A stretch of DNA of 64,000 nucleotides from contig OY970325.1 of NCBI GenBank assembly GCA_963717145.1, forward strand, positions 4,067,248 through 4,131,247. The letters run 5' to 3'. Of the stretch, positions 484-61,820 are shown in pieces (the first letter of the stretch is position 1; the number at the start of each line of letters is the position of its first letter). The stretch is from an uncultured Armatimonadetes bacterium (lineage in GTDB: Bacteria; Armatimonadota; UBA5829; DTJY01). The translations under genes were made by a program, and so were the position numbers. The notes beneath the pieces are model-generated. The model saw nothing but the letters and a program-made list of their open reading frames with translations. It made no database searches and was not told the DNA's origin.

Positions 484-499
484 TGCAAGATTCGTGCCA
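484..499 (-). promoter_or_regulatory. sigma-54 (RpoN) -24/-12 promoter, transcription towards window start
   Basis: Minus strand reads TGGCACGAATCTTGCA = TGGCACG-N4-TTGCA consensus; same ~35-bp unit recurs at 58612 and 58808. Confidence 0.55.
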
Positions 500-710: not shown

Positions 711-2948
711 CTACCTGCTGACGACGCATACGCCATCCTCGGTGAGGGGGCAGCGATAGAAGCTCGTGCTGGCTATCCGCGTCACTGAGAGCGGCTTGCC
801 GTTGAGCGAGACCTTGGGCATGCGCGGACTCACTATGATCAGTTCCGGCTCGACGGGCTTGGGGAAGCTGTAGTGAGGCATCGAAACCTGCAATTGGAAT
901 CGGTCACCTCTCTGACTTTCCAGGCGGATGTTGGCGCTCCCGGCATCGACGACCTGCAGCTTGTCCGGATCGAGCACCCACACGACGCCCGGCTCGGCGA
1001 ACACGCCGCTGACGGGCTCTCTCCCGGACATTTCGTAGCCCACCAGGTTCTTCGGTATCGTCAGATGCTGCCCTCTCTCCAGGCAGTAGTATCCGGGCTC
1101 GCGGGCACCTGCATCGCGATTGAGGATGTGCAGCATTCCCGCGCTCCGCATGGTCGGCGGCTTAAGGCCGAAGAACGACTCCACCAATGCGTCGCAGCCG
1201 CTCCTGGGGATGCCGGCGAGGACCATCAGGTTCCCGCGGCGCCAGCCGACGGTCTGGCCACCTGCCTCGATCCACTCGCCGTCTGTGAAAGCAGGATTCC
1301 GCCGGACATTCGGCGTCACGCTCAATTCGACTTTCTTCCGTTCGGACGTCTCGAATGAAACTGGAGCCGCCAAACTGCCAATCGGACTGATCGGCAGAAC
1401 GTCGAGCAGGGCATGGGTGAGATCGCGGCTCGTCCTGCGTCCGGGCTCGCAGAATAGCTGCGTCTTCGAGCAGACCACGAGGACCTTCTTGTCCTTGGGC
1501 ACGTTAGCGAGGAGTTCAGTGAGATAGGTGTCGGTCGGCCCGTCGGTGAAGCCGAGGACCAGGATGACGTTCTCGTAGTCGTCGTACTTGTCCAACTGCT
1601 CGGTCAGGAGTACATCGGGGCCGTACTTGACGAGGTCCTCGGACATCGCCTTCAGGATCGTCCACTGTTCGTTCTCGAGCTTGGCGACTTCGGGGTCTCT
1701 CGCGGACTCCGGATTCGCCGGCGGGATGAAGACCGCGAGGTCGCGCGTCGGACGCTCGATATGCTTGTACGGGGTCATAAGCTCCAACTGACCGCGCATC
1801 ACCGCCAGCTCGGTCGCGATACGGTCGGTATTGAACCAGTCCCAGGTGTCATTCGTGCTGAAGGCGAAGTAGTTGATCGCGGCCGGCTTGAACTGCAGTT
1901 CGTGGAACACGGCGCGGTAGACGTTATCTGGCGTGTTGCCGTCCAGGCTGCCGGATTGGAACTCGTTGTAGAAGGGCCTACGCCCGGTCCGGAGCGCCTG
2001 TTGCGCGATGCAGCTACTCGCCAACTCGACGACGACGGGATCGAACAGCGCGAACTTGTGCTTGACGTCGTTTCCCTGCAGGTCCTTCTGCCCCAGGTAC
2101 TCGAACACGTAGTGCGTGACTCCGACGGCGTCCGACGGGTACTTCAGTTGGCGCATGCTCTGGCCGAATGTGGGAGTGTAGGGGATGCTGAGCAGCCGGC
2201 TCGTCACGATCAAGTTATCGCCATGGATGCCGTGGTAGAAGTTGTCCATGCCGACGATCACGTGCGTGATCAGGTACTCCTTGAACAGCGTGTGCAGGAA
2301 GGTTCTGAACAGACAATCGCTCGGCATGGCGGTACCGAGTGTTGACCATTTCTCCGAGGTGAACCCGAAGTCTTTCTCGAAGGTGATGCCGTCTCCGTTG
2401 CTGTCCTCCGAGGGTGACTTGTCCCCATACAAACCGGCCATCCAGTCGCCGAAGTCCTTCGACGACTCGGGCGTCACCATCAGCGACTCGACCTCTTCCT
2501 TCTTGTGGTTCGTGTAGTAATAGTCGGGCGAGAAATGCGGTTCGCTTCCGGTATCGAAACCGAGGCAATACTTGTGCGTTTCCTGTATGGCGTAGAGCTT
2601 GTCGCCCATCCCCCGGTAGTCCCAGTGCTCCTTGTCCCAACTGCCGATCGGGATGTAGTTGTGGAACAGCTCCACCCACGGGATGCGGGCCTCATCCAGA
2701 GCCTCGTTCACCCACGCGTCATGGGTGTCATGAGTGACGAAATCGAACACGTCGATCAGGTTGGGCACGACCGGCTTCATCGACTGCTCGATGCAGATGT
2801 GCGCGCCGATCAACGGCCTCCGACTGTCCTGCGCGCTGTATACGTTCAGCAGTGGCTTCCGGCCCTCGGTGTGCCATTTCATGATGCTCTCCTGTGCGCA
2901 GAGATGAGCGCAGATCAACACGAGCGTTAGAATAATGATAGCGCGCAT
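711..2948 (-). CDS. secreted hypothetical protein, function unassigned; co-transcribed with GH78 gene
   Basis: ORF 711..3404 trimmed to the ATG at 2948 (MRAIIILTLVLICAHLCAQ signal peptide); upstream gene stop codon is 5 bp away. Confidence 0.45.
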   Translation of the reverse strand: MRAIIILTLVLICAHLCAQESIMKWHTEGRKPLLNVYSAQDSRRPLIGAHICIEQSMKPVVPNLIDVFDFVTHDTHDAWVNEALDEARIPWVELFHNYIPIGSWDKEHWDYRGMGDKLYAIQETHKYCLGFDTGSEPHFSPDYYYTNHKKEEVESLMVTPESSKDFGDWMAGLYGDKSPSEDSNGDGITFEKDFGFTSEKWSTLGTAMPSDCLFRTFLHTLFKEYLITHVIVGMDNFYHGIHGDNLIVTSRLLSIPYTPTFGQSMRQLKYPSDAVGVTHYVFEYLGQKDLQGNDVKHKFALFDPVVVELASSCIAQQALRTGRRPFYNEFQSGSLDGNTPDNVYRAVFHELQFKPAAINYFAFSTNDTWDWFNTDRIATELAVMRGQLELMTPYKHIERPTRDLAVFIPPANPESARDPEVAKLENEQWTILKAMSEDLVKYGPDVLLTEQLDKYDDYENVILVLGFTDGPTDTYLTELLANVPKDKKVLVVCSKTQLFCEPGRRTSRDLTHALLDVLPISPIGSLAAPVSFETSERKKVELSVTPNVRRNPAFTDGEWIEAGGQTVGWRRGNLMVLAGIPRSGCDALVESFFGLKPPTMRSAGMLHILNRDAGAREPGYYCLERGQHLTIPKNLVGYEMSGREPVSGVFAEPGVVWVLDPDKLQVVDAGSANIRLESQRGDRFQLQVSMPHYSFPKPVEPELIIVSPRMPKVSLNGKPLSVTRIASTSFYRCPLTEDGVCVVSR

Positions 2949-2953
2949 GATCT

Positions 2954-5740
2954 CTACCTCTCCGAGTCGAACGCATACCTGCCCGATCCCACTTCGAAAA
3001 CCGCATGGCCGTTCTCGAAGCGCACGGCCTTCAAGCCATCGGATTCCCTCACGCTGGTCGCATCCTTCGCCGGGACGTGGACGGTGGCCGTCGTGTTCGG
3101 CGGAATCGTCAGGTCCCACCGGAACGACTTGCCGTCGAGCGACCACGCGCTCGCGATCCGTCCGTTCGGGCCATCGTGCCAGGCCCTCACCCACGTCAGC
3201 CCGCCGACGAGGTCGGGACGGAGCACCAGTCGGCGGAACCCGACTTTCGGTCGGATGCCGGCCAAGTCCTCCATGAACCACACGTGTATCGGCGCGGCCA
3301 GCGACGGCATCTGCACTCCACCGCCGTCCCACGCCTCCTGATACGTCCCCTGCCGCACCATGCCGAACCAGCCGGGGGTGTCCGGCTGTGTGGCGATTGT
3401 CCATGCCAGGTCCGGGCGGCCGATGTCCGACAGCGTGGTCAGCAGGATCGGCGTTCCGACGAAGCCGGACGCAATGTGGTTGTTCGCCTCCTCGACCGCC
3501 TTGGCCAGACGCGCCTCGACCTTCGGCTTCACCTCGCTCGGAGTCAGCCCGAGAGCCAAGGGGAGCGACTGAGCGGTCTGTCCGCCCTTGAGGTCATAGA
3601 CGCCGGTCTCGGTATCGAGGAAAGTGCGGTTGAATGTCGCTCGTATCTCACCTGCGCGACGCTCGTAGAGAGCGTGATCGTCCGGGTGATCGAGCACGGA
3701 TGCTGTGTCGGCCATGATCTGTGCGAACCACGCGAGTGCGGCGGTCGATGTGTAGACGACCCTCGCCTTCGAAGTCTCGACTGCCAGCCAGTCGCCGAGT
3801 CCCCACCACAGCACGTCCTTGCCCGTCGGTCCTTCGAGCCTCGGCCAGGCGGCCCGCGCCTTCTCATCCACACAGAGCTGCTCCAGGTACGCGAAATGCG
3901 CCTTCATCCCCTCGTAGCTCTCAGCCAACAATGATGTATCCCCATACGCCTGGTAGTAGAGCCACGGCGTATAGAGTATCGCGCCGCCCCACCACGGGCC
4001 GTTGATGTCCGGCGCCTCGAACCGACCGGGCACGACCGGTGCGACGTAGCCATCGGGGAACTGCCCATCGAGGAAGTCGAGCTGCCACTTGCGGTACGTC
4101 GGGCCGACATCGTAGAACCACGACTCGGCCGGGAACTGGTTCCAGACATCCTGCGTCCACGGCGACTTCTCGCGGACCGGATCGTTCGGGATCTGGATGA
4201 TGTAGTTGTAGACCGTGCGGCGGAAGACCTCCTGGAGGCGGTTGAGGCGTTCATCCGAGCAGGCGAACTTGCCGACCACCGGCAGATCGGTCGCCGTCAC
4301 GACGCCGACGAGGTCCTCGGCTTTCGGCTCATACCCGAGCCCCGAGACATCGACCGCGCCGAATCCGTGGTACGTCAGGCTCGGCTGGCAGACCTCTTCG
4401 CCCTCACCCCGCGCGGTGTAGATGTCGGTCTGATAGCGCCCGAACGTGTGACCGCTGCCGCCGAGGACGTTCATAGTCACCACCTGCCCGGGCTTCGCTC
4501 TCAGCTTCAAGCGGGGGACGCCGCCGACTCCCTCCCTCAGGGTGAACCGCCACTTGTCCTCGCCCACTTTCTCGACCTTGGCTGCGGGGATCTCCTCCAG
4601 CGCTCGCACCGGATAGAGCAGTTGCGCCGACATCCGGCCCTTGGGGGACGAAGCGGGTAGGGCGGGTTTCCATGTTGAGTCATCGAACCCCGGCGCGGAC
4701 CAGCCGGGCATCTCCTTCCGAGCGTCGTATGTGTTTCCGCCCGCAAAGCAGTTGTAGCGGACCGGGCCGTCGGTCGTGAACCTCCAACGCCGGTCGGTGC
4801 CGATGATCGCTCGGCTGCCGTCCGTATACTCGATCTCCAGGTCCATCCTGAGCTGTGGCGGCGAGATGAAGTCCGAGCGGTAATATCCGTGGAAGAGCGG
4901 GCTGATCGGATTGAACCAGCCGTTGCCGAGCACGATGCCGACGGCATTTCGGCCCTGCCTGAGCGACTCCGTAACGTCGCGGACGACGTAGGGCACGCGC
5001 TTCTCGTAGTCGCACATGGCGGGATCGAGGAGGTTCGGGCCGACGAACCGGCCGTTGATGTGCAGTTCGAAGCATCCGAGGCCGGAGACATAGGCGACCG
5101 CGCGTCGGATGCTCTTCGGCGCGTCGAACTCCCGGCGCGTATAGACCGCGGGCGCCTCATTCGCGTCCTTCGACATCTCGGCGATCTTGCCACCGAGTCC
5201 CCACAATATGCCGCAGTACCCATTGTTCCGGCCCGGATCGGGAAACGCCTTCAGTTCCTTCTGGTAAGACATCAGCTCGAGGTCGGAAGCGATCCACTGC
5301 CCGCGCCAGTCCTTCGGGCTGAGGATGCCCATTGTCCACTCGGCGGGTTGGCTCCATGCGGAGGGCCGGTTGTCCTGGTCCCAAACACGCACCTTCCAGA
5401 AGACCCGCTGCCGAGATGCGAGTGGTTTGCCGGCATAGGGGATTGCGACCGTTGAGTCCGAGGTCACCCCACAGCTGTCCCACAGGTCGCCCCTGTTCGC
5501 CCTCAACTCCGCCGCGGAGGACGCGACGATCACTTGATAAGCCATCTGCCTGAGGCCGCGGGAAGCCGGATCGGCCGCCTCGCAGACCCACGACAGGTGT
5601 GGGTGGGCCTGATCGACGCCAGGTGGATTCACCATCCGCTCGCACGTCAACTGCACCGGGTTGAGCGCGGCGTTCTGAGCCGATGCGCCTGATGCGGCGA
5701 TGATGAGGATGAGCAGTGACAGTGCGACCCGACGAGTCAT
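2954..5740 (-). CDS. alpha-L-rhamnosidase, glycoside hydrolase family 78
   Basis: 928-aa ORF with signal peptide; length and sequence resemble bacterial GH78 rhamnosidases; GGAGG SD before ATG at 5740. Confidence 0.8.
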   Translation of the reverse strand: MTRRVALSLLILIIAASGASAQNAALNPVQLTCERMVNPPGVDQAHPHLSWVCEAADPASRGLRQMAYQVIVASSAAELRANRGDLWDSCGVTSDSTVAIPYAGKPLASRQRVFWKVRVWDQDNRPSAWSQPAEWTMGILSPKDWRGQWIASDLELMSYQKELKAFPDPGRNNGYCGILWGLGGKIAEMSKDANEAPAVYTRREFDAPKSIRRAVAYVSGLGCFELHINGRFVGPNLLDPAMCDYEKRVPYVVRDVTESLRQGRNAVGIVLGNGWFNPISPLFHGYYRSDFISPPQLRMDLEIEYTDGSRAIIGTDRRWRFTTDGPVRYNCFAGGNTYDARKEMPGWSAPGFDDSTWKPALPASSPKGRMSAQLLYPVRALEEIPAAKVEKVGEDKWRFTLREGVGGVPRLKLRAKPGQVVTMNVLGGSGHTFGRYQTDIYTARGEGEEVCQPSLTYHGFGAVDVSGLGYEPKAEDLVGVVTATDLPVVGKFACSDERLNRLQEVFRRTVYNYIIQIPNDPVREKSPWTQDVWNQFPAESWFYDVGPTYRKWQLDFLDGQFPDGYVAPVVPGRFEAPDINGPWWGGAILYTPWLYYQAYGDTSLLAESYEGMKAHFAYLEQLCVDEKARAAWPRLEGPTGKDVLWWGLGDWLAVETSKARVVYTSTAALAWFAQIMADTASVLDHPDDHALYERRAGEIRATFNRTFLDTETGVYDLKGGQTAQSLPLALGLTPSEVKPKVEARLAKAVEEANNHIASGFVGTPILLTTLSDIGRPDLAWTIATQPDTPGWFGMVRQGTYQEAWDGGGVQMPSLAAPIHVWFMEDLAGIRPKVGFRRLVLRPDLVGGLTWVRAWHDGPNGRIASAWSLDGKSFRWDLTIPPNTTATVHVPAKDATSVRESDGLKAVRFENGHAVFEVGSGRYAFDSER

Positions 5741-34851: not shown

Positions 34852-35075
34852 CGGTGCATTCGAGTTGAGTGGGCGGCGATCCGACCGTCTCTCGTTATGG
34901 TTTCGGGGCCTCCAGAGACGCGGAGGCCGTCCGCAGACGGACGCAGAGAGAAACCTACTCGAGACTAGACGGGGCTGGGGACTGGGGAGTCCGGCAGACC
35001 ACCCAACCGTTCTCCTCGAGTAGCCACTCTGGTGGCATAACGAGAGGCTGCACCCACTCTGCGGAAATGCACCCC
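34852..35075. mobile_element. MITE copy 2 (ISKra4-like derived)
   Basis: GGTGCATTCGAGTTGAGTGGG matches 20/21 to the reverse complement of the IS right end; right terminus CCCACTCTGCGGAAATGCACC. Confidence 0.65.
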
Positions 35076-35122
35076 CTACGTCCATTGACGCATCGAGGCC
35101 CTTCGCGTACAATGCCGCTGGA

Positions 35123-36581
35123 GGACCCACCGATGCGTTTTCTATTCTTCGCACTGCTTGCTCTCATCACCATGATCCCCGCGAGCCTGTATGCCGAGGA
35201 CCTGATCGCCGGGAATCCGCCGTTCCGACGGCTCTTCCTCGATGCGATGGTGACCGAGGAGTCTCAGGGCCTCACGCGCGTATTCCACTCCGCCGAGAAG
35301 CACCCCGGCAATCCCGTCATGCGTACCACCGAGGCGTGGGAAGGCTGGGGGCCGTATCTCTACGGCACAGTGCTGCGGGACGAGGGGCGGCTCAAGATGT
35401 GGTACTCCTGCATCGGCTCAGACAGCGGGTATACGTGCTACGCCGAGTCCACGGATGGCATCACCTGGACCAAGCCGAAACTCGGGATCGTCGACTTCAA
35501 GGGATCGACCGCGAACAACATCGTCGGCACAATGGGCCTCCCGAGCGTGATGAAGCTCGGAGACAAGCGATGGGCGATGTACTCCTGGGGCGGCGACTCG
35601 GGTGCGCAGGTCATGTTTTCCGAAGACGGTCTGCGCTGGACTCAGGGCAAGACGAAGCTCTTCCCGACCTCCGACGTCGTCAACTTCTTCTACGACCCGT
35701 ATCGGGAGCGCCATGTCTCGACCTACAAGGTCGCGAACCGCCGGCACAGGGCGACCGGCCTCGCGGTCTCCAGCGATGGATTGGAGTGGAGCAAGCCGGT
35801 CGAGGGGCCGGTCTTCGGCGCGGATGACCTCGACCCGGACGCCTCCCAGGTCTACGGCATGCCGGTGTTCCCGTACCAGGGCATGTATGTCGGCCTGCCC
35901 TGGATCTATCACGCGCGATGGATGAAGTATGGCGACTATGACTCGCCGAAGAAGATGTACGAGGCACAGGAAGGGAGTCCGTGCACCGTAGATGTCCAGA
36001 TGACGTGGGGCTGGAACCTCATCCAGTGGAATCGAACGCCCGACCGGAAGCCGTTCATCGCCCTCGGGCCGGACGGAAGCTGGGACGACGGCATGATCTA
36101 CACCGCCCGCGCGCCGGTCGTCATGGGCGACAAGCTCGGGTTCTACTACGGCGGATTCGATCAGGTCCACGATGACTACAAGGATGTCCACGGCGCGATC
36201 GGGCTGGCGACCCTCCGGCTCGATGGATTCTGCTCCATGCGCGCCGGGGTCAAGGAGGGATGGCTGATCAGCCGGCGGGAGGTCTTCCGTACCCCCAGAG
36301 TCACGATCAACGCGAAGACCGCCCCGACCGGCTTCGTCGCGGCCGAGCTGCTCGATCGGAACAACAACGTCATCCCCGGCTTTTCACGAGCCGACTGCAT
36401 CCCATTCACGGGCGACTCGGTCCGAGGCACGATCGAATGGAAGACAGAATCGTTCCCGAAGAAGCTGATCGACGCCGACAAGAAGGTCCGCTTCTTCGTC
36501 AAGAACGCCGATCTCTATTCCTACCTCCCGGCGGACATCGACATGGCGAAGGACGACGGTCGAATCTGGATGGACAAGTGA
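35123..36581 (+). CDS. secreted beta-propeller glycoside-hydrolase-like protein (GH43/GH32/GH130-like)
   Basis: Signal peptide MRFLFFALLALITMIPASLYA; TACAAT -10 and GGAGGA SD upstream. Confidence 0.5.
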
Positions 36582-36668: not shown

Positions 36669-38249
36669 ATGACGGAACCGGTAAGCAGAAGAGGATTCCT
36701 GAAAGGTTCGCTCGCGGGAAGTGCAATCGTGGGCATGGGCGGCATATCCGCATTCGGCGCACCGATTGAAAATGGAGGCACGAGCATGGCATCTAGGTAT
36801 GACAGCCAGACACCAAAGGGCGAGATCTCGCACAGGTTGCTCTTCTTCGAGGCGCCGAACGAGGCATACGGCATCCACCATGCCTATGCGCCGGTGACGA
36901 AGGTCGAGTGCCGCGTGGACGACGGCGGGCTCGGCTGGTCGTGCATCGACTTCGGCGATCCGATCGAGATCGGCGGCACGTACCGATGTTATGGGACCGT
37001 GCGGACTCCCGACGAGAAGTTCATGGGCATCGCCCTGTGGGAATCCAATGATGCGCTCGAGTGGACGCCGGTCACCCTCGGCCAGGTCAAGCGGGACGGC
37101 AAGGAAACGAACCTCATCGAGTTCGAGAACCTGCCCGGCGACCAGACCGCGGTGTCGCTCCCGAACGTCATCCGGCTGAACGATGGCCGCATGCGGATGT
37201 ACTTCTGGAAGCACCGCGACGGTCATCTGCGCTACCTGATCGCCGAGAGCGAAGACGGCCGCCGCTGGCGGGTCCTCGATGTCGACAAGCCGGCGCTGTT
37301 CCATCCCCATGACGGCGGCCTGTGGAAGCTTGCGGAGGGCCTCTCAAGACACGAAGCGCCTGAGATCAAGCTCACGCCGGAGGAATTCCTGAGACGCAAG
37401 CGGCTCTGGAGCAACGACTCGACGCATATCCACTACAATCCGCAGCTCGACCGCTTCGAATGCTACTCGGTCTGGCTCCATCCCGCGATCCCCGACCGGC
37501 GGGTCGATGTCGACAACGCACCCGGCATCCACCGCCTCATCCATCGCCGATTCAGCGCGGACGGCCTCGAATGGAGCGACGCCGAATTGATCATCATGCC
37601 GGACGACGGAGATCCGTGGGACCTGCAGTTCTACTTCCTGAGCGTCCATCGCCAGGCGGACTGGATGATCGGTCGGGTGGGATACTACCGCGTGGCCGAT
37701 GGGATGCAGACGACGGACACCGACCTCTGCTTCTCCCGCGACGGCCGAAACTGGGAGCGTCCCGTGCGCGGTGGGTGGATTCCCCGCTCGAATGAGGGCC
37801 TCGATACGATGGGCATCTACGCAGCCGGCGCATTGGTCGATCGCGGCGACCGATGGCTCACCCTCTACAGCGGGACACCCGTGCCGCACAACAACGGCAG
37901 GTATCGATCGGGCGTGATGGGAGCCACGTTTGCGAAGAACCGATTCGTCGGACTGGAAGCCGATCGCACGCGGGGCGGGTTCATGACGGAGCCGTTCTTC
38001 CCGGCGGGAGAGACAATCCGCCTGGACGCGGACATCCGGGGCTCTCTGAGGGCTGAGTTGTGTGATGCGTTCGGCCGCAAGCTCGAAGGGTTCCATCTCA
38101 TGGATTCGACGCCGATCCAGGGCGACTCCGAGGCCCACATCCTCCGATGGAAGGAAGCATCGACCGCCGACCACCGCTTCGAGTGCTTGCGCCTCCGGTT
38201 CGAGTACACCGACGGCGTCGTCTACGGCGTGGACTTCTCGGCGGGATGA
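36669..38249 (+). CDS. Tat-secreted beta-propeller glycoside-hydrolase-like protein
   Basis: SRRGFLKGSLAGSAIVG twin-arginine signal; distantly similar to the preceding gene product. Confidence 0.5.
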   Translation: MTEPVSRRGFLKGSLAGSAIVGMGGISAFGAPIENGGTSMASRYDSQTPKGEISHRLLFFEAPNEAYGIHHAYAPVTKVECRVDDGGLGWSCIDFGDPIEIGGTYRCYGTVRTPDEKFMGIALWESNDALEWTPVTLGQVKRDGKETNLIEFENLPGDQTAVSLPNVIRLNDGRMRMYFWKHRDGHLRYLIAESEDGRRWRVLDVDKPALFHPHDGGLWKLAEGLSRHEAPEIKLTPEEFLRRKRLWSNDSTHIHYNPQLDRFECYSVWLHPAIPDRRVDVDNAPGIHRLIHRRFSADGLEWSDAELIIMPDDGDPWDLQFYFLSVHRQADWMIGRVGYYRVADGMQTTDTDLCFSRDGRNWERPVRGGWIPRSNEGLDTMGIYAAGALVDRGDRWLTLYSGTPVPHNNGRYRSGVMGATFAKNRFVGLEADRTRGGFMTEPFFPAGETIRLDADIRGSLRAELCDAFGRKLEGFHLMDSTPIQGDSEAHILRWKEASTADHRFECLRLRFEYTDGVVYGVDFSAG

Positions 38250-42930: not shown

Positions 42931-43114
42931 GTTTGCGGCGGAAGGGGCTGACAAAGCACATTCTATGGTACAATGTCATCGAGAATGGCCTGGTTCCCGA
43001 ACTGTCACCGTGAGGTGCGCGTGTCCGCCGTTGGCGGAATAGGGGCCGGGCCGAACCTTTCCGGGGGGCCGGCTTCAGGCATGAGGCCGGCCTTATTCAT
43101 TTTCTACCCGGTTT

Positions 43115-58490: not shown

Positions 58491-58611
58491 CCCCTAATGT
58501 TATCCGGCCCGGGCATACTCTCCTTGGGCACAAGAAAAATGGCCCGCAGGGTGTTCGCCTGCGAGCCAAGTAAGTAAGGAGAAAAAGATGTCTTTTTCAA
58601 CTGGGGATATC

Positions 58612-58627
58612 TGCAAGAATCGTGCCA
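58612..58627 (-). promoter_or_regulatory. sigma-54 -24/-12 promoter P1 (about 120 bp upstream of the PHP gene)
   Basis: Minus strand reads TGGCACGATTCTTGCA; extended consensus also satisfied. Confidence 0.6.
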
Positions 58628-58807
58628 ATCCCGGCAATAATGCCTGCCATGTAGCATATTTCACGAACTTATCACATTCAGCACATGCGGCGTTCACGAA
58701 CAAACGCCTATCAGGCGGTTTGGAGGGCAAAAAAAGAGAAGCCTGCGAGATTTTCCCGCAGGCTCGTAAGGAAGGAGAAATAGATGTTGTTTCCAGGTAG
58801 TATTACC

Positions 58808-58823
58808 TGCAAGAATCGTGCCA
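58808..58823 (-). promoter_or_regulatory. sigma-54 -24/-12 promoter P2 (about 315 bp upstream of the PHP gene)
   Basis: Minus strand reads cgaatTGGCACGATTCTTGCAggt, a perfect extended consensus; part of a ~70-bp tandemly duplicated unit. Confidence 0.6.
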
Positions 58824-58916
58824 ATTCGTGCAACAAGTCGGGGAAAGGTCAAAAAGAGTTGGAGGCAGGGGGCAATCATTGAGGCACACGTGATCGATGA
58901 TGCGTTGGCAGTGCAC

Positions 58917-59789
58917 TCAAGAATCCGAGGTTCCGGCAACTGCAGAGCTCGTCATAGTACCGGTTGATATGACGTATGGCTGGTATACATGCGTCGTCCC
59001 ATCTAGAGCCAGAAAGCATCCTCTGCTGCAGACAAGAAGCGCTCGAGTGTGGAAGTATATACATCCACTTTCTGCGAAATTCTCGGCGGTCAGATATCGA
59101 TTGTGCATCACTCTGTTTCGGAGAGTCCGAAGTTCGTTCAGTTTGTAATAAGCGCCCTTTCGAATAAAGACATTCCGGAACACATCTGCCCAGCAAGTCG
59201 CCTCATCTATGATCTTGGGCAAGTCTGAGAAGTCAGCGTAGAATATGTCGTGCATCCTCTCAAAATCATGTTCAAGATCGTTCTCCTCATCAGACTTCCG
59301 ATTGCCACACCTGCGCTGGATGGCAAGTAGATCTGGCTCAGCGCTGACCGTCCACCAGTCCATGCCGTAGCATCTTGCCATAGATGCGGCGATGCGACGC
59401 CGAAGTTTGTTCTCCAGATCATGCAGGTCTGCATATGTCTTGATGGTCCGTTGGCGGCCTATCCCATCGTAGCTCAACATCCACCATGTGAAATAGGCAG
59501 ACGCGGCGTATTCAATGCGAGTCTTGGCCTCTTGCATCTCCGTCTCTCCAGCTTCCTCGCCACCCTCCAGCATGATCTGGAACACGTTTGGCGATCCTCC
59601 GCTCCATCTAATCCTAACGAACACACCTTGTGCCAACCCGGATACCTCGCTCTGAGCTTGGAGGCCTGGCTGTAACTCGAAGTCTGTCAGTTCCATTAGC
59701 TCCACCATATCGGTACTGGCCTGAGCATCTGGTGAGTTATTGAGAGCGAGGTACTCCACTTGGTTACTTGCGAGAGCAGGTGTGGTCAT
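58917..59789 (-). CDS. HEPN-domain protein (Abi/Swt1-like), putative RNase effector
   Basis: LRTLRNRVMHNRY carries the Rx4H HEPN motif; start is immediately after the stop of the methyltransferase (TAGATG); lower-GC DNA. Confidence 0.55.
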   Translation of the reverse strand: MTTPALASNQVEYLALNNSPDAQASTDMVELMELTDFELQPGLQAQSEVSGLAQGVFVRIRWSGGSPNVFQIMLEGGEEAGETEMQEAKTRIEYAASAYFTWWMLSYDGIGRQRTIKTYADLHDLENKLRRRIAASMARCYGMDWWTVSAEPDLLAIQRRCGNRKSDEENDLEHDFERMHDIFYADFSDLPKIIDEATCWADVFRNVFIRKGAYYKLNELRTLRNRVMHNRYLTAENFAESGCIYFHTRALLVCSRGCFLALDGTTHVYQPYVISTGTMTSSAVAGTSDS

Positions 59790-61715
59790 CTATCCGTCCT
59801 CCAGCACGACATCCTCAACGAGCGCCTGTATCTGACAACAAGTGTCCTGCGCTTGCTGCTCCAGTTCCCGCACGTGGTTCCGCAGATCCGCTATGCGCTG
59901 CACTAATCCCGATTGAGTTCCTAGAGGTGGAATGGGGACGCGTATCGACCGCAGACTGCTGTAGTCCAGTGCTGGCCTCGTAGAGCCCGTTGCAATCCGT
60001 TCCATCTGGGTACGGCAGAGGGCGCTGTTGAGTGCGGCTTCCAAGTATCCTGGCAGTGCCTGGTCAGGCCTGACTCTGAGTCGAACAATGTGCTGGTTGA
60101 TATTTGCTTCCCGGAGTTCGGGAGGTACCACGGCCGCGGTGCCTATCCGGCCCGTAATCGTAAGAAGGACGTCGCCAGGGGTTAGCATCGATCGCGCCAA
60201 AGTGCCCGTATGAGTTCGCCTATCAATATATAACACATCAGCTAGATCGATCATGCCTTCCTGTATGTTCTGAATGCGTAGGAGAGGCACACCTGCCTCA
60301 GCGTTCACATACGCCTCTCCCTTTGCTGCGGGAGTTGCACCCCCTGATATGCTCTCTACAATCTCGCCAAGCGTACGCACCGGGTACTTGCTTTGGCCCA
60401 GTCTAACGTCTATGGAGATGCTGAAAGATGGCTTATGGAAAAATGGATCCATCCGCAGCGTAAGTCTGCCTTCGTCTGCCATATAGCAAATAGGTTCAGC
60501 TTCATTAGATGCGGGTAGCCCTTGCGCGGAAGCAGAGAATAGAGTGGCCACCACAGGAAGGGAATCCTCGTCCACTCTTCCGGTCGCGTCGTAGCCCACA
60601 TGGGAAGGCAAGGCCATGAATGTCATCCCCATGCTATCATCATGCGGCTGTCTACGTTGTAGTACCACCAAGCTGGCCTTTACACCTATGCCTGCTGGGG
60701 CAAAAGTGTGGGAAGGTAGTGAGATGACTGCCAGGACATGGCACCTGTCTTGTATGAACTGTCTCACATACTGCAGTGAAACTGTTGTCAATACAGAGTC
60801 GGGCAACACCAAGGCAAGCCGACCAGGTCTGCCGCCGGCCTTAAGAAGCTCGATACATCGCTCCAAGAACAGGAGTTCGCTCTTCTGAGCACGTCGGATG
60901 GATCCCCTGGACCCCAGATCGAATTGCTCGAGTGTTTCCGGCTCAGAGACGATACCCCCAAATGGGGGATTTGTGGCAACTACGTCGCATGAAGCGGGTG
61001 TCAGCCGCGACACGGCGGTGAGGGTCGGCCAAGCGGATAGGGCATTTGCGCAAAAAACGTTGGAGTGCCCGTCTCCATGTAGCACCATGGTTACCATCGC
61101 CAAGTGCGCCAATCGCTCGTTTAGCTCGACTCCCACCAGGTGCTGGGAAGCATACTGAGCTACATTCAGATCTGGGTTGCGCTGGGATACGTAATTCAAG
61201 CCGTAGAGAAGGAAACCGCCACTGCCACACGCAGGGTCCGCGAGGACATCATCGGGTCCAGGGTTCAATATCGTGATGGCCAGTTGAACTATTGGCCTTG
61301 GCGTAAGGTACTGACCGAGCTCAGCCTTAAAAACATCTCCAAGGAAGGCTTCAAAAGCTCTTCCGGGCGAGTCCAAATCCGATTCCACCAAAGACAAGTC
61401 CTGGAGTTGTTCGACTACGTTAGATACGATCTGCTCGGATACTGCCAGAGGTTTGTTGAACACTCCAGGATATGCATTGCAGGCTTGGTCATACACCTCC
61501 AGGACTCGAACGGCTGTGTCGTGAGCCGTCTCGCCGTTTTGCCTCCTGAACTCCCCTTTCCCCTGCACCTCATCGTATACCTTGGCAAAAAGCAATTTGG
61601 AGAACTCATCAAACGCTGTGACAGGATCACGCCGTCCACTCTCCCAGAGCATCTTGTGTGAGTTCGCGAATCGCTCCTTGAGTTGTGCCAGTGCAACCTT
61701 GTGCGGTCGGTTCAT
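59790..61715 (-). CDS. N6-adenine DNA methyltransferase (HsdM-like) fused to one HsdS-type target-recognition domain
   Basis: HsdM_N region; ADPACGSGGFL (motif I); ATNPPFGG (motif IV); C-terminal 230 aa resemble a type I S-subunit TRD (LGEIVESISGGATP ... IPPLGTQSGLVQRIADL); start taken at the internal MNRPHK. Confidence 0.75.
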   Translation of the reverse strand: MNRPHKVALAQLKERFANSHKMLWESGRRDPVTAFDEFSKLLFAKVYDEVQGKGEFRRQNGETAHDTAVRVLEVYDQACNAYPGVFNKPLAVSEQIVSNVVEQLQDLSLVESDLDSPGRAFEAFLGDVFKAELGQYLTPRPIVQLAITILNPGPDDVLADPACGSGGFLLYGLNYVSQRNPDLNVAQYASQHLVGVELNERLAHLAMVTMVLHGDGHSNVFCANALSAWPTLTAVSRLTPASCDVVATNPPFGGIVSEPETLEQFDLGSRGSIRRAQKSELLFLERCIELLKAGGRPGRLALVLPDSVLTTVSLQYVRQFIQDRCHVLAVISLPSHTFAPAGIGVKASLVVLQRRQPHDDSMGMTFMALPSHVGYDATGRVDEDSLPVVATLFSASAQGLPASNEAEPICYMADEGRLTLRMDPFFHKPSFSISIDVRLGQSKYPVRTLGEIVESISGGATPAAKGEAYVNAEAGVPLLRIQNIQEGMIDLADVLYIDRRTHTGTLARSMLTPGDVLLTITGRIGTAAVVPPELREANINQHIVRLRVRPDQALPGYLEAALNSALCRTQMERIATGSTRPALDYSSLRSIRVPIPPLGTQSGLVQRIADLRNHVRELEQQAQDTCCQIQALVEDVVLEDG

Positions 61716-61820
61716 CTTGTCCGCTGCGCTTTCTGTGCTAGTCTTGCCATCATGAGAACAGAGCCGTTCATCACATGCGTTCGGCAACCATACGCAATCT
61801 TCCTTCCGAATCCGTTTTCA

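Follow-up and report, generated by a model that had tools for sequence, protein, structure and literature searches.

A Methyltransferase–Specificity Fusion Coupled to a HEPN Protein in an Armatimonadota Genome, Probably a Stripped-Down Restriction–Modification System Turned Phage-Defence Module

What does a restriction–modification (R-M) methyltransferase do once its nuclease is gone and the gene that follows it encodes a HEPN protein? This question is raised by a two-gene cassette in a 64,000-nucleotide stretch (the window) of contig OY970325.1 from an uncultured Armatimonadetes bacterium. An initial annotation of the DNA letters had described the pair as an HsdM–HsdS fusion coupled to an Abi-like HEPN protein, with no HsdR. 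Below we set out that the first gene encodes a fusion of an N6-adenine methyltransferase (MTase) with a target-recognition domain (TRD), henceforth M.S, that the second encodes a HEPN protein with an N-terminal domain (NTD) of its own, and that the two very probably make up one functional unit derived from an R-M operon. By analogy with systems studied elsewhere, the cassette is probably a stripped-down R-M system, turned to phage defence as a suicide or decoy module.

Layout of the cassette and its methyltransferase

The cassette and the domains of its first gene are arranged as follows.

59790–61715, minus strand: M.S gene, N6-adenine MTase–TRD fusion, 641 aa from the ATG at 61715
59790–61787, minus strand: the same open reading frame (ORF) from an alternative start, TTG at 61787, 665 aa
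61212–61238, minus strand: MTase motif I, DPACGSGGF, invariant in alignment A2
60960–60971, minus strand: MTase motif IV, NPPF, invariant in alignment A2
60642–61373, minus strand: N6_Mtase catalytic domain (Pfam)
59853–60389, minus strand: single TRD (Methylase_S, aa 467–645), found by Pfam, PADLOC and our own profiles
59787–59802, minus strand: gene junction, with GGAGGA, the TAG stop and the HEPN ATG in series
58917–59789, minus strand: HEPN gene, NTD–HEPN protein of 290 aa
61821–61859, no strand assigned: hairpin in the gap from the topA stop to the M.S start, with a 16-bp perfect stem and a loop of 7 nt

The ATG at 61715 is the likely start of M.S and agrees both with the database copy P0003 (641 aa) and with the start of its homologue. 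At the other end of the gene, the TAG stop of the MTase (59790–59792) abuts the HEPN ATG (59787–59789), and a Shine–Dalgarno-like GGAGGA (59797–59802) lies within the MTase 3′ end, 7 nt upstream of that ATG. Such a layout implies translational coupling of the two genes, as had been proposed from the abutting codons. The junction in the most similar relative, locus L001, follows the same logic (GGAGGTG, TAA, 3 nt, ATG), and the HEPN gene overlaps the gene that precedes it in L006, L009, L011, L018 and L022.

The lower-GC island of the initial annotation is likewise real: GC content is 0.537 in the cassette and 0.609 in the window as a whole, and no 2.9-kb stretch of the window lies lower. GC content at third codon positions is 0.57 in both cassette genes and 0.83–0.88 in hemB, the PHP-domain gene and topA, and the cassette must therefore have been acquired horizontally. 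This contrast, which shows a recent horizontal acquisition of the sort typical of defence cargo, counts in favour of a defence role. Flanking direct repeats, an integrase and a tRNA were looked for as boundaries of the island, and none was found. The neighbours are housekeeping genes, with a PHP-domain gene, topA and hemB at the flanks; what had been called a flanking phosphatase is the PHP-domain protein. A strong hairpin does separate the cassette from topA, as described before, with arms that are 100% complementary, a folding energy of −33.9 kcal/mol and a z score of −5.35; a T-run is lacking, the terminator scan did not pick it out as intrinsic, and it is not a canonical terminator.

The M.S protein is a γ-class N6-adenine MTase with an HsdS-type TRD. 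Pfam returns N6_Mtase at 9.8e-32 and one Methylase_S domain at 8.7e-09, PADLOC returns MTase_II/MTase_I at about 1e-57 and Specificity_I at about 1e-28, and purpose-built hidden Markov models (HMMs) find one MTASE domain, one TRD domain and no NUC domain, which bears out the single TRD that had been read from the translation; both catalytic motifs are present too. The TRD finds the EcoKI S subunit (1.9e-15) and S.BsaXI in the PDB by sequence, and is followed by a conserved C-terminal coiled-coil helix. The HsdM label is the part of the proposed HsdM–HsdS fusion that has to be given up. M.S scores 34.1 bits against the 242.75-bit cutoff of the hsdM equivalog TIGR00497 and matches the general N6_Mtase domain only, and its closest solved relative in a PDB sequence search is RM.BsaXI, a Type IIB enzyme (4.1e-25), with HsdM proteins next. 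Judged by these matches, M.S is nearer to the Type IIB/IIG R-M enzymes than to canonical HsdM.

Among 758 homologues the exact M.S architecture is found in P0004 only (63% identity). The next-best homologues measure 828 or about 1065 aa (range 828–1066) and carry an additional N-terminal PD-(D/E)xK domain of the PF13588 (HSDR_N_2) family; in these proteins a nuclease domain of about 190 aa precedes the MTase, which is followed by one or two TRDs. In the alignment M.S begins exactly where the nuclease domain of its relatives ends. Neither PF13588 nor the NUC HMM, which represent a domain present in L006, L009 and P0005–P0018, matches M.S, and because only about 100 bp lie between M.S and topA the nuclease domain is truly absent. 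No helicase or HsdR family was matched in the ten window ORFs scanned (most other long ORFs fell outside the scan), and the cassette itself holds neither a DNA nuclease nor a helicase. The absence of HsdR, noted at the outset, therefore stands as an observation within this scope, and not as an anomaly: on the evidence of its gene and domain content, this MTase clade never uses HsdR, its nuclease being either a fused PD-(D/E)xK domain or an adjacent Type II restriction endonuclease (REase). What is truly anomalous is the lack of the fused nuclease, together with a HEPN protein in the effector slot after M.S.

That this position is an effector slot follows from other nuclease-less members of the clade. 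P0051, P0040 and P0050 directly adjoin a MamI-type Type II endonuclease, and a MamI-type REase comes directly after the nuclease-less M.S in L002/3, L004/5 and L106. The nearest other nuclease-less M.S, P0019 on L105, is 41% identical to the window MTase and is followed by an overlapping helical ORF of 250 aa (2084–2836 on the plus strand of L105). This all-helical protein contains an Rx4H-like RDTLYH and has no PADLOC match; perhaps the slot is filled here by another effector, HEPN-like but unrelated to the first. Its HepT-like match is sub-threshold (E 0.073), and we left the protein unassigned.

Since each chain carries a single MTase and a single TRD, M.S would probably act as a homodimer that approximates an M2S1 Type I methylase, the chains joined through the C-terminal HsdS-type helix and the dimer reading a symmetric bipartite site. 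This expectation is modelled on half-S subunits, and M.S may instead be monomeric, with an asymmetric site. The fusion is in either case a candidate stand-alone N6-methyladenine methylase, with a site that is possibly symmetric and bipartite.

The HEPN protein and its operons

The protein encoded by the second gene divides into the following parts.

59466–59762, minus strand: N-terminal α/β domain (aa 10–108), family-specific
59400–59417, minus strand: LENKLR in the first helix
59076–59420, minus strand: HEPN domain (aa 124–238)
59103–59120, minus strand: Rx4H motif RNRVMH (aa 224–229)
58917–59018, minus strand: C-terminal tail (aa 258–290), 33 aa, unconserved and predicted disordered

Profile searches support the HEPN assignment that had been made from the RNRVMH motif, with Pfam PF18731 (HEPN_Swt1) matched at E 7e-09 and 36.4 bits against a cutoff of 27.5, and PADLOC PDC-M34B at 4.8e-14. 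The AlphaFold2 model (pLDDT 78.6, pTM 0.68) consists of a compact NTD (aa 10–108) with the order β-α-β-β-β-α-β, a helical HEPN region (aa 109–257) with the all-α fold of that superfamily, and a disordered tail. The fold closest to the HEPN domain is that of the toxin AbiF, at a sequence identity of about 9%. Across 13 family members R224 and H229 do not vary, and E126, R130 and W145 are invariant together with them in the NTD–HEPN family. The tail has no counterpart in the relatives, which are 250–274 aa long, and the window copy seems to be extended beyond the usual stop of the family. For the NTD no catalytic fold was found and no PADLOC match was obtained; on the strength of the model we infer that it is an adaptor or sensor domain, and a HEPN fold nearest to AbiF joined to an NTD without a catalytic fold fits an adaptor role.

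Proteins of this build are very rare. Searched by word index, 5.8 billion clusters gave a single relative, P0002, at 55% identity, and exhaustive HMMER searching of 1.84 billion representatives gave 976 proteins with the HEPN core, of which about ten also cover the N-terminal 110 residues, so that the NTD–HEPN family amounts to some ten clusters. The contigs that carry family members were annotated with domain HMMs from our own alignments, with Pfam and with PADLOC.

L001: M.S (no nuclease, one TRD), then HEPN; flanked by IMPDH and an HD-domain gene, unrelated to the flanks in the window
L006, L009, L011: PD-(D/E)xK–MTase (about 600 aa), S with two TRDs (about 480 aa), then HEPN, genes overlapping
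L007 (= L012), L010: TRD gene cut by the contig end, then HEPN
L018/19, L022: MTase (weak HSDR_N_2), half-S (L018/19 only), HEPN, S, then a DUF7662–helix-turn-helix (HTH) gene
L020/21: half-S (PADLOC Specificity_II, 4e-28), HEPN, then HTH; no MTase

A TRD-bearing gene adjoins the HEPN gene in nine of nine distinct loci with readable flanks and usually overlaps it (loci listed for this linkage: the window, L001, L006, L007 = L012, L009, L010, L011, L018/19, L020/21 and L022). The usual operon of the family has three genes, for a nuclease–MTase, an S subunit and the HEPN protein, and L006 and L009 have kept the D...ExK motif of the nuclease. Of the two-gene form without nuclease there is one further instance, L001, at 55–63% identity to the window, and the recurrence of the pair elsewhere in the same form, with different flanks, is what the initial annotation would have predicted; the distant relatives all lie in MTase/S operons. 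Ranked by identity to the window, the relatives come in the same order for the MTase (63, then 43–46, then 30–31%) and for the HEPN protein (55, then 33–35, then 29–32%), as would be expected of a unit that is inherited together. From this gene content the HEPN family is an integral accessory of helicase-less, Type IIB-like R-M operons, of which the window and L001 represent a reduced form, without DNA nuclease, whose two genes have both been kept intact across 55–63% divergence. Because the two-gene form is intact at this distance and amid unrelated neighbours, it points to selection on the pair and not to recent decay.

Two observations on the distant relatives belong here. In L020 (6409–8058) and L021 (123–1772) a half-S of 201 aa, the HEPN protein and an HTH protein of 88 aa adjoin infC-rpmI-rplT. 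In L018 (6264–6755) and L022 (4530–5015) the operon ends in a DUF7662–HTH_3 gene, whose HTH resembles RmrA and C-protein-type regulators in PADLOC and which probably encodes the controller of the operon; the window and L001 are without it.

The operons bear on several other accounts of the pair. If the cassette were the decaying remnant of a three-gene R-M–HEPN system that has lost its nuclease, M.S would be an orphan methylase and the HEPN gene a functionless passenger. The commoner architecture of the family, with its PD-(D/E)xK domain and two-TRD S subunit, would suit such a history, as would the unconserved, disordered tail of 33 aa on the window HEPN protein. Both ORFs are nevertheless full-length and keep all catalytic and family-invariant residues, the same reduced form in a copy only 55–63% identical means that the loss is old and that both genes have been maintained since, and a single-TRD M–S fusion looks like clean re-engineering rather than debris; we consider decay quite unlikely. 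It is less probable still that M.S is a Type I-like methylase served by an HsdR or another REase elsewhere in the genome, with the HEPN gene next to it by coincidence. The window covers 64 kb of a genome of about 5.4 Mb, and the MTase does resemble HsdM proteins in sequence, but a TRD–HEPN adjacency in nine of nine loci is no coincidence, helicase-type R genes are absent from the related loci, the hsdM score of 34 bits against 242.75 and a best solved relative of Type IIB (RM.BsaXI) point away from Type I, and the nuclease of the clade is a fused N-terminal domain.

We give equally little credit to the idea that the HEPN-fold protein is itself the DNA endonuclease of a true R-M system, in place of the PD-(D/E)xK domain. 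The HEPN gene does stand where other nuclease-less M.S genes are followed by a MamI-type REase, and R.LlaBIIP offers a case of an N-terminal HEPN-like region where a PD-(D/E)xK domain would be (PMC2441816). In L006 and L009, however, the same family stands beside an intact D...ExK domain and can be no substitute for it, the catalytically active HEPN domains that have been characterised are RNases (PMC3710099), and the closest fold is that of AbiF, an RNA-binding toxin. A non-toxic role in which the HEPN protein acts on RNA as a regulator, for example by processing the operon mRNA and so timing methylase against effector in the manner of a control protein, strikes us as similarly improbable. 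Regulation is a theme in the operons of distant relatives, which hold an HTH or DUF7662–HTH gene, but in the window and L001 only the methylase is left to regulate, and the invariant Rx4H, E and R residues suit a catalytic nuclease of the AbiF kind.

Known systems and a possible guard mechanism

The pairing of an MTase with a HEPN protein has precedents in PrrC–EcoprrI, in Ronin and in the 2013 survey of HEPN domains. The anticodon nuclease PrrC is held latent by the Type Ic R-M enzyme EcoprrI and unleashed when R-M is inhibited (PMC3710099). The likeness to our cassette lies in a HEPN RNase gene within an R-M locus that contains M and S genes and, by analogy, in the guard logic; PrrC differs in its N-terminal ABC-ATPase and in its complete hsdMSR, whereas the NTD of the window protein, unlike that of the PrrC/RloC anticodon nucleases, is an α/β domain of about 100 aa in which no ATPase profile finds a match. 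The closest experimentally studied analogue is Ronin, from E. coli ECOR55, in which R-less hsdM/hsdS genes hold down a toxin whose gene is tightly linked to them and which is set free by Ocr, ArdA or Aop1 (bioRxiv 10.1101/2023.04.06.535777). Triggering of Ronin is independent of methyltransferase catalysis, and most of its host genomes lack hsdR (same source). R-less M/S genes tightly linked to a (here putative) effector gene are common to Ronin and the cassette, a likeness of architecture and presumably of function, without homology between the effectors. RonA is a membrane peptide of 61 aa, and the only gene coupled to M.S here encodes a 290-aa NTD–HEPN protein that does not answer to its description, a comparison made by description since no RonA sequence or profile was run against the locus. 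In Ronin, moreover, HsdM is a protein by itself and HsdS has two TRDs, as is canonical for Type I, where the cassette has a fused single-TRD M.S of a Type IIB/IIG-like clade; Ronin also needs an upstream noncoding region. In the 2013 survey at least 16 HEPN clades were linked to R-M loci, with HEPN domains fused to nucleases and helicases and never to methylases (PMC3710099); the window HEPN protein is likewise unfused, yet it is coupled to a methylase–specificity fusion that has no nuclease.

Other known systems share single parts. HEPN domains have been interpreted as backup suicide effectors for BREX-related systems (PMC12839542), and HEPN proteins of the Swt1/Abi2 clade in Ava_2192/DUF499 "Hma" or BREX-related loci have in common with ours the HEPN_Swt1 family and a link to N6-MTase-based defence; unlike them, the window protein stands alone, with an NTD of its own, linkage to a TRD gene, no ATPase and no helicase. 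From Type IIB/IIG enzymes (RM.BsaXI with S.BsaXI, PDB 8w0p) M.S takes γ-MTase motifs I and IV together with an HsdS-type TRD. In its close homologues an N-terminal PD-(D/E)xK domain precedes a γ-MTase, and next come TRDs of HsdS type or, as a protein apart, an S subunit with two TRDs. The Type IIB/IIG R-M enzymes also include BcgI and the AloI/CjeI type, which is single-chain. The window M.S departs from all of this in having no nuclease domain, one TRD and an added HEPN partner, and because the fused nuclease domain is absent it cannot be a Type IIB/IIG restriction enzyme. It departs from Type I R-M in that its one TRD is fused to the MTase, with no separate two-TRD S subunit. AbiF is neutralised by an upstream noncoding RNA (ncRNA) (PMC13064643), but the cassette differs from AbiF/AbiD type III toxin–antitoxin (TA) systems in giving no Abi_2 Pfam match and in its NTD, and the abutment of the HEPN ATG to the MTase stop leaves no room for an upstream ncRNA. 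Membership of MADS was rejected on scores of 215 bits against a cutoff of 720 for MAD2 and 57 against 400 for MAD5. The HEPN core matches PDC-M34B of PADLOC PDC-M34 (4.8e-14 in the window, 1.2e-18 in L006); the likeness ends with that core, as no PDC-M34A appears among the best 25 of the 155 window MTase matches or among the related-locus matches listed, and on these matches we do not assign the cassette to PDC-M34, a system of which no mention was found in the literature searched. Taken by analogy, the cassette would work like Ronin and PrrC while belonging to neither, as a rare variant of a known strategy.

The mechanism to which these comparisons lead is a guard of the PrrC/Ronin kind, in which M.S restrains the HEPN RNase until infection releases it; its chances seem to us evenly balanced. 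A Type IIB/IIG-like R-M operon with a HEPN accessory gene would have been acquired horizontally and reduced, and the loss of the fused PD-(D/E)xK nuclease would have left the HEPN protein as the sole effector. M.S would still recognise and methylate its DNA site, with the HEPN protein docked through its NTD onto the TRD/coiled-coil part of M.S and kept inactive there. A perturbation of M.S, by a phage anti-restriction protein or DNA mimic, by loss of the cassette or possibly by unmethylated incoming DNA, would then free the RNase to cleave cellular or phage RNA, with growth arrest or abortive infection as the outcome. If true, this extends decoy or guard immunity of the PrrC and Ronin type to a two-protein HEPN–RNase system with a single-chain M.S sensor, and brings to light a new adaptor domain, one that joins an RNase to specificity modules of HsdS type; the occurrence of the HEPN family in nuclease-containing and nuclease-less operons would then form a natural series for the conversion of R-M into abortive infection. 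Should the mechanism fail, an orphan methylase with a passenger gene remains, of limited interest.

Several points weigh against this guard. In most relatives the HEPN gene stands alongside an intact PD-(D/E)xK domain, so the HEPN protein may be no more than an auxiliary, and the form without R could be a damaged system. For the same reason the proposal of the initial annotation is kept in part: the domains and the pairing of a non-classical R-M module hold, and the tie between the HEPN protein and R-less systems does not, given that most relatives have a complete nuclease–MTase and S. The modification-dependent trigger suggested there is a hypothetical one, and Ronin, the nearest analogue studied by experiment, does without MTase catalysis. 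L020/21, which has no MTase, indicates that the HEPN family does not strictly require one. The NTD–HEPN family was not found on phages or viral contigs, its plasmid matches cover the HEPN core only, in unrelated architectures without R-M genes, and it is absent from a scan of 185,579 representative genomes, so that ecology gives no hint as to triggers. The cassette lies between housekeeping genes, outside any defence island, and a trans-acting nuclease may be encoded beyond the 64-kb window. Finally, the M.S–HEPN complex, its RNase activity, its trigger and the defence phenotype are all things we infer.

A variant in which the same parts work differently is restriction carried out by an RNase: methylation at the recognition site would be sensed by the M.S dimer, and unmethylated foreign sites would license the docked HEPN protein to cut RNA. 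We hold this to be rather unlikely. If true, it would mean epigenetic discrimination of self from non-self with abortive-infection RNA cleavage as its output and no cleavage of DNA, and the NTD would be an adaptor of a kind not known before, attaching an RNase to TRD/coiled-coil modules of HsdS type, which would also explain why a TRD gene is the one invariant neighbour of the HEPN gene, even where the MTase is missing (L020/21).

About as doubtful is an addiction module of TA type without a dedicated antiviral role, in which a stable HEPN RNase toxin is neutralised by M.S, loss of the cassette kills the segregants and methylation is a by-product. The tight coupling of two genes with the putative neutraliser first would fit such a module, the foreign composition and the differing flanks of the two copies would fit a mobile selfish cassette, HEPN toxins are common as TA components, and the toxicity of RonA is indeed suppressed by the HsdMS of Ronin. 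On the other side, the ancestry of the family lies in full R-M operons, which are defence systems, and an MTase of 641 aa with intact catalytic motifs and a TRD would be a very large antitoxin. Addiction and abortive infection are, moreover, not mutually exclusive roles, and we retain the guard mechanism, with its function in defence, as the preferred reading of the pair.

Downstream repeats and other features of the window

Beyond the HEPN stop lies a pair of repeats.

58530–58640 and 58728–58836, minus strand: tandem repeats between the HEPN stop and the PHP-domain gene

The repeated units of 71 nt are 77% identical and 196 bp apart, and each opens with a perfect sigma-54 −24/−12 element (TGGCACGATTCTTGCA). 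Some 40 nt after this element comes CUCCUU(A/C)CUUAC, which is anti-Shine–Dalgarno-like, and beyond it a strong hairpin and T-run of terminator type (fold z scores −4.5 and −5.6). With these signals the repeats resemble two small RNAs under sigma-54 control; of the Rfam families none reaches its threshold on them, the best being mmgR/suhB at E 0.033. They were considered as an AbiF-like ncRNA antitoxin and rejected, since they lie downstream and not upstream, have sigma-54 promoters and are absent from all 22 related loci compared, and they are probably a feature of the host and not part of the cassette. The sigma-54 pattern occurs three times in the window against 0.02 expected. After the third perfect site (484–499, minus strand; TGGCACGAATCTTGCA) comes a leader with a hairpin, and an ATG lies near 372.

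Three of the ten scanned ORFs, all of at least 250 aa, gave no Pfam match at all (711–3404, 34869–36581 and 36669–38249). The region 711–25958 is rich in polysaccharide-degradation genes, with an α-L-rhamnosidase, an FGE-sulfatase-domain protein, a heparinase II/III and an M16 peptidase, and several large ORFs of the window (897, 949, 570 and 526 aa) are without a Pfam match at E ≤ 1e-5. The only above-threshold Rfam match in the window is a DUF3800-IX RNA (RF02968) at 42987–43056 on the plus strand, with 58 bits and an E value of 5.5e-10.

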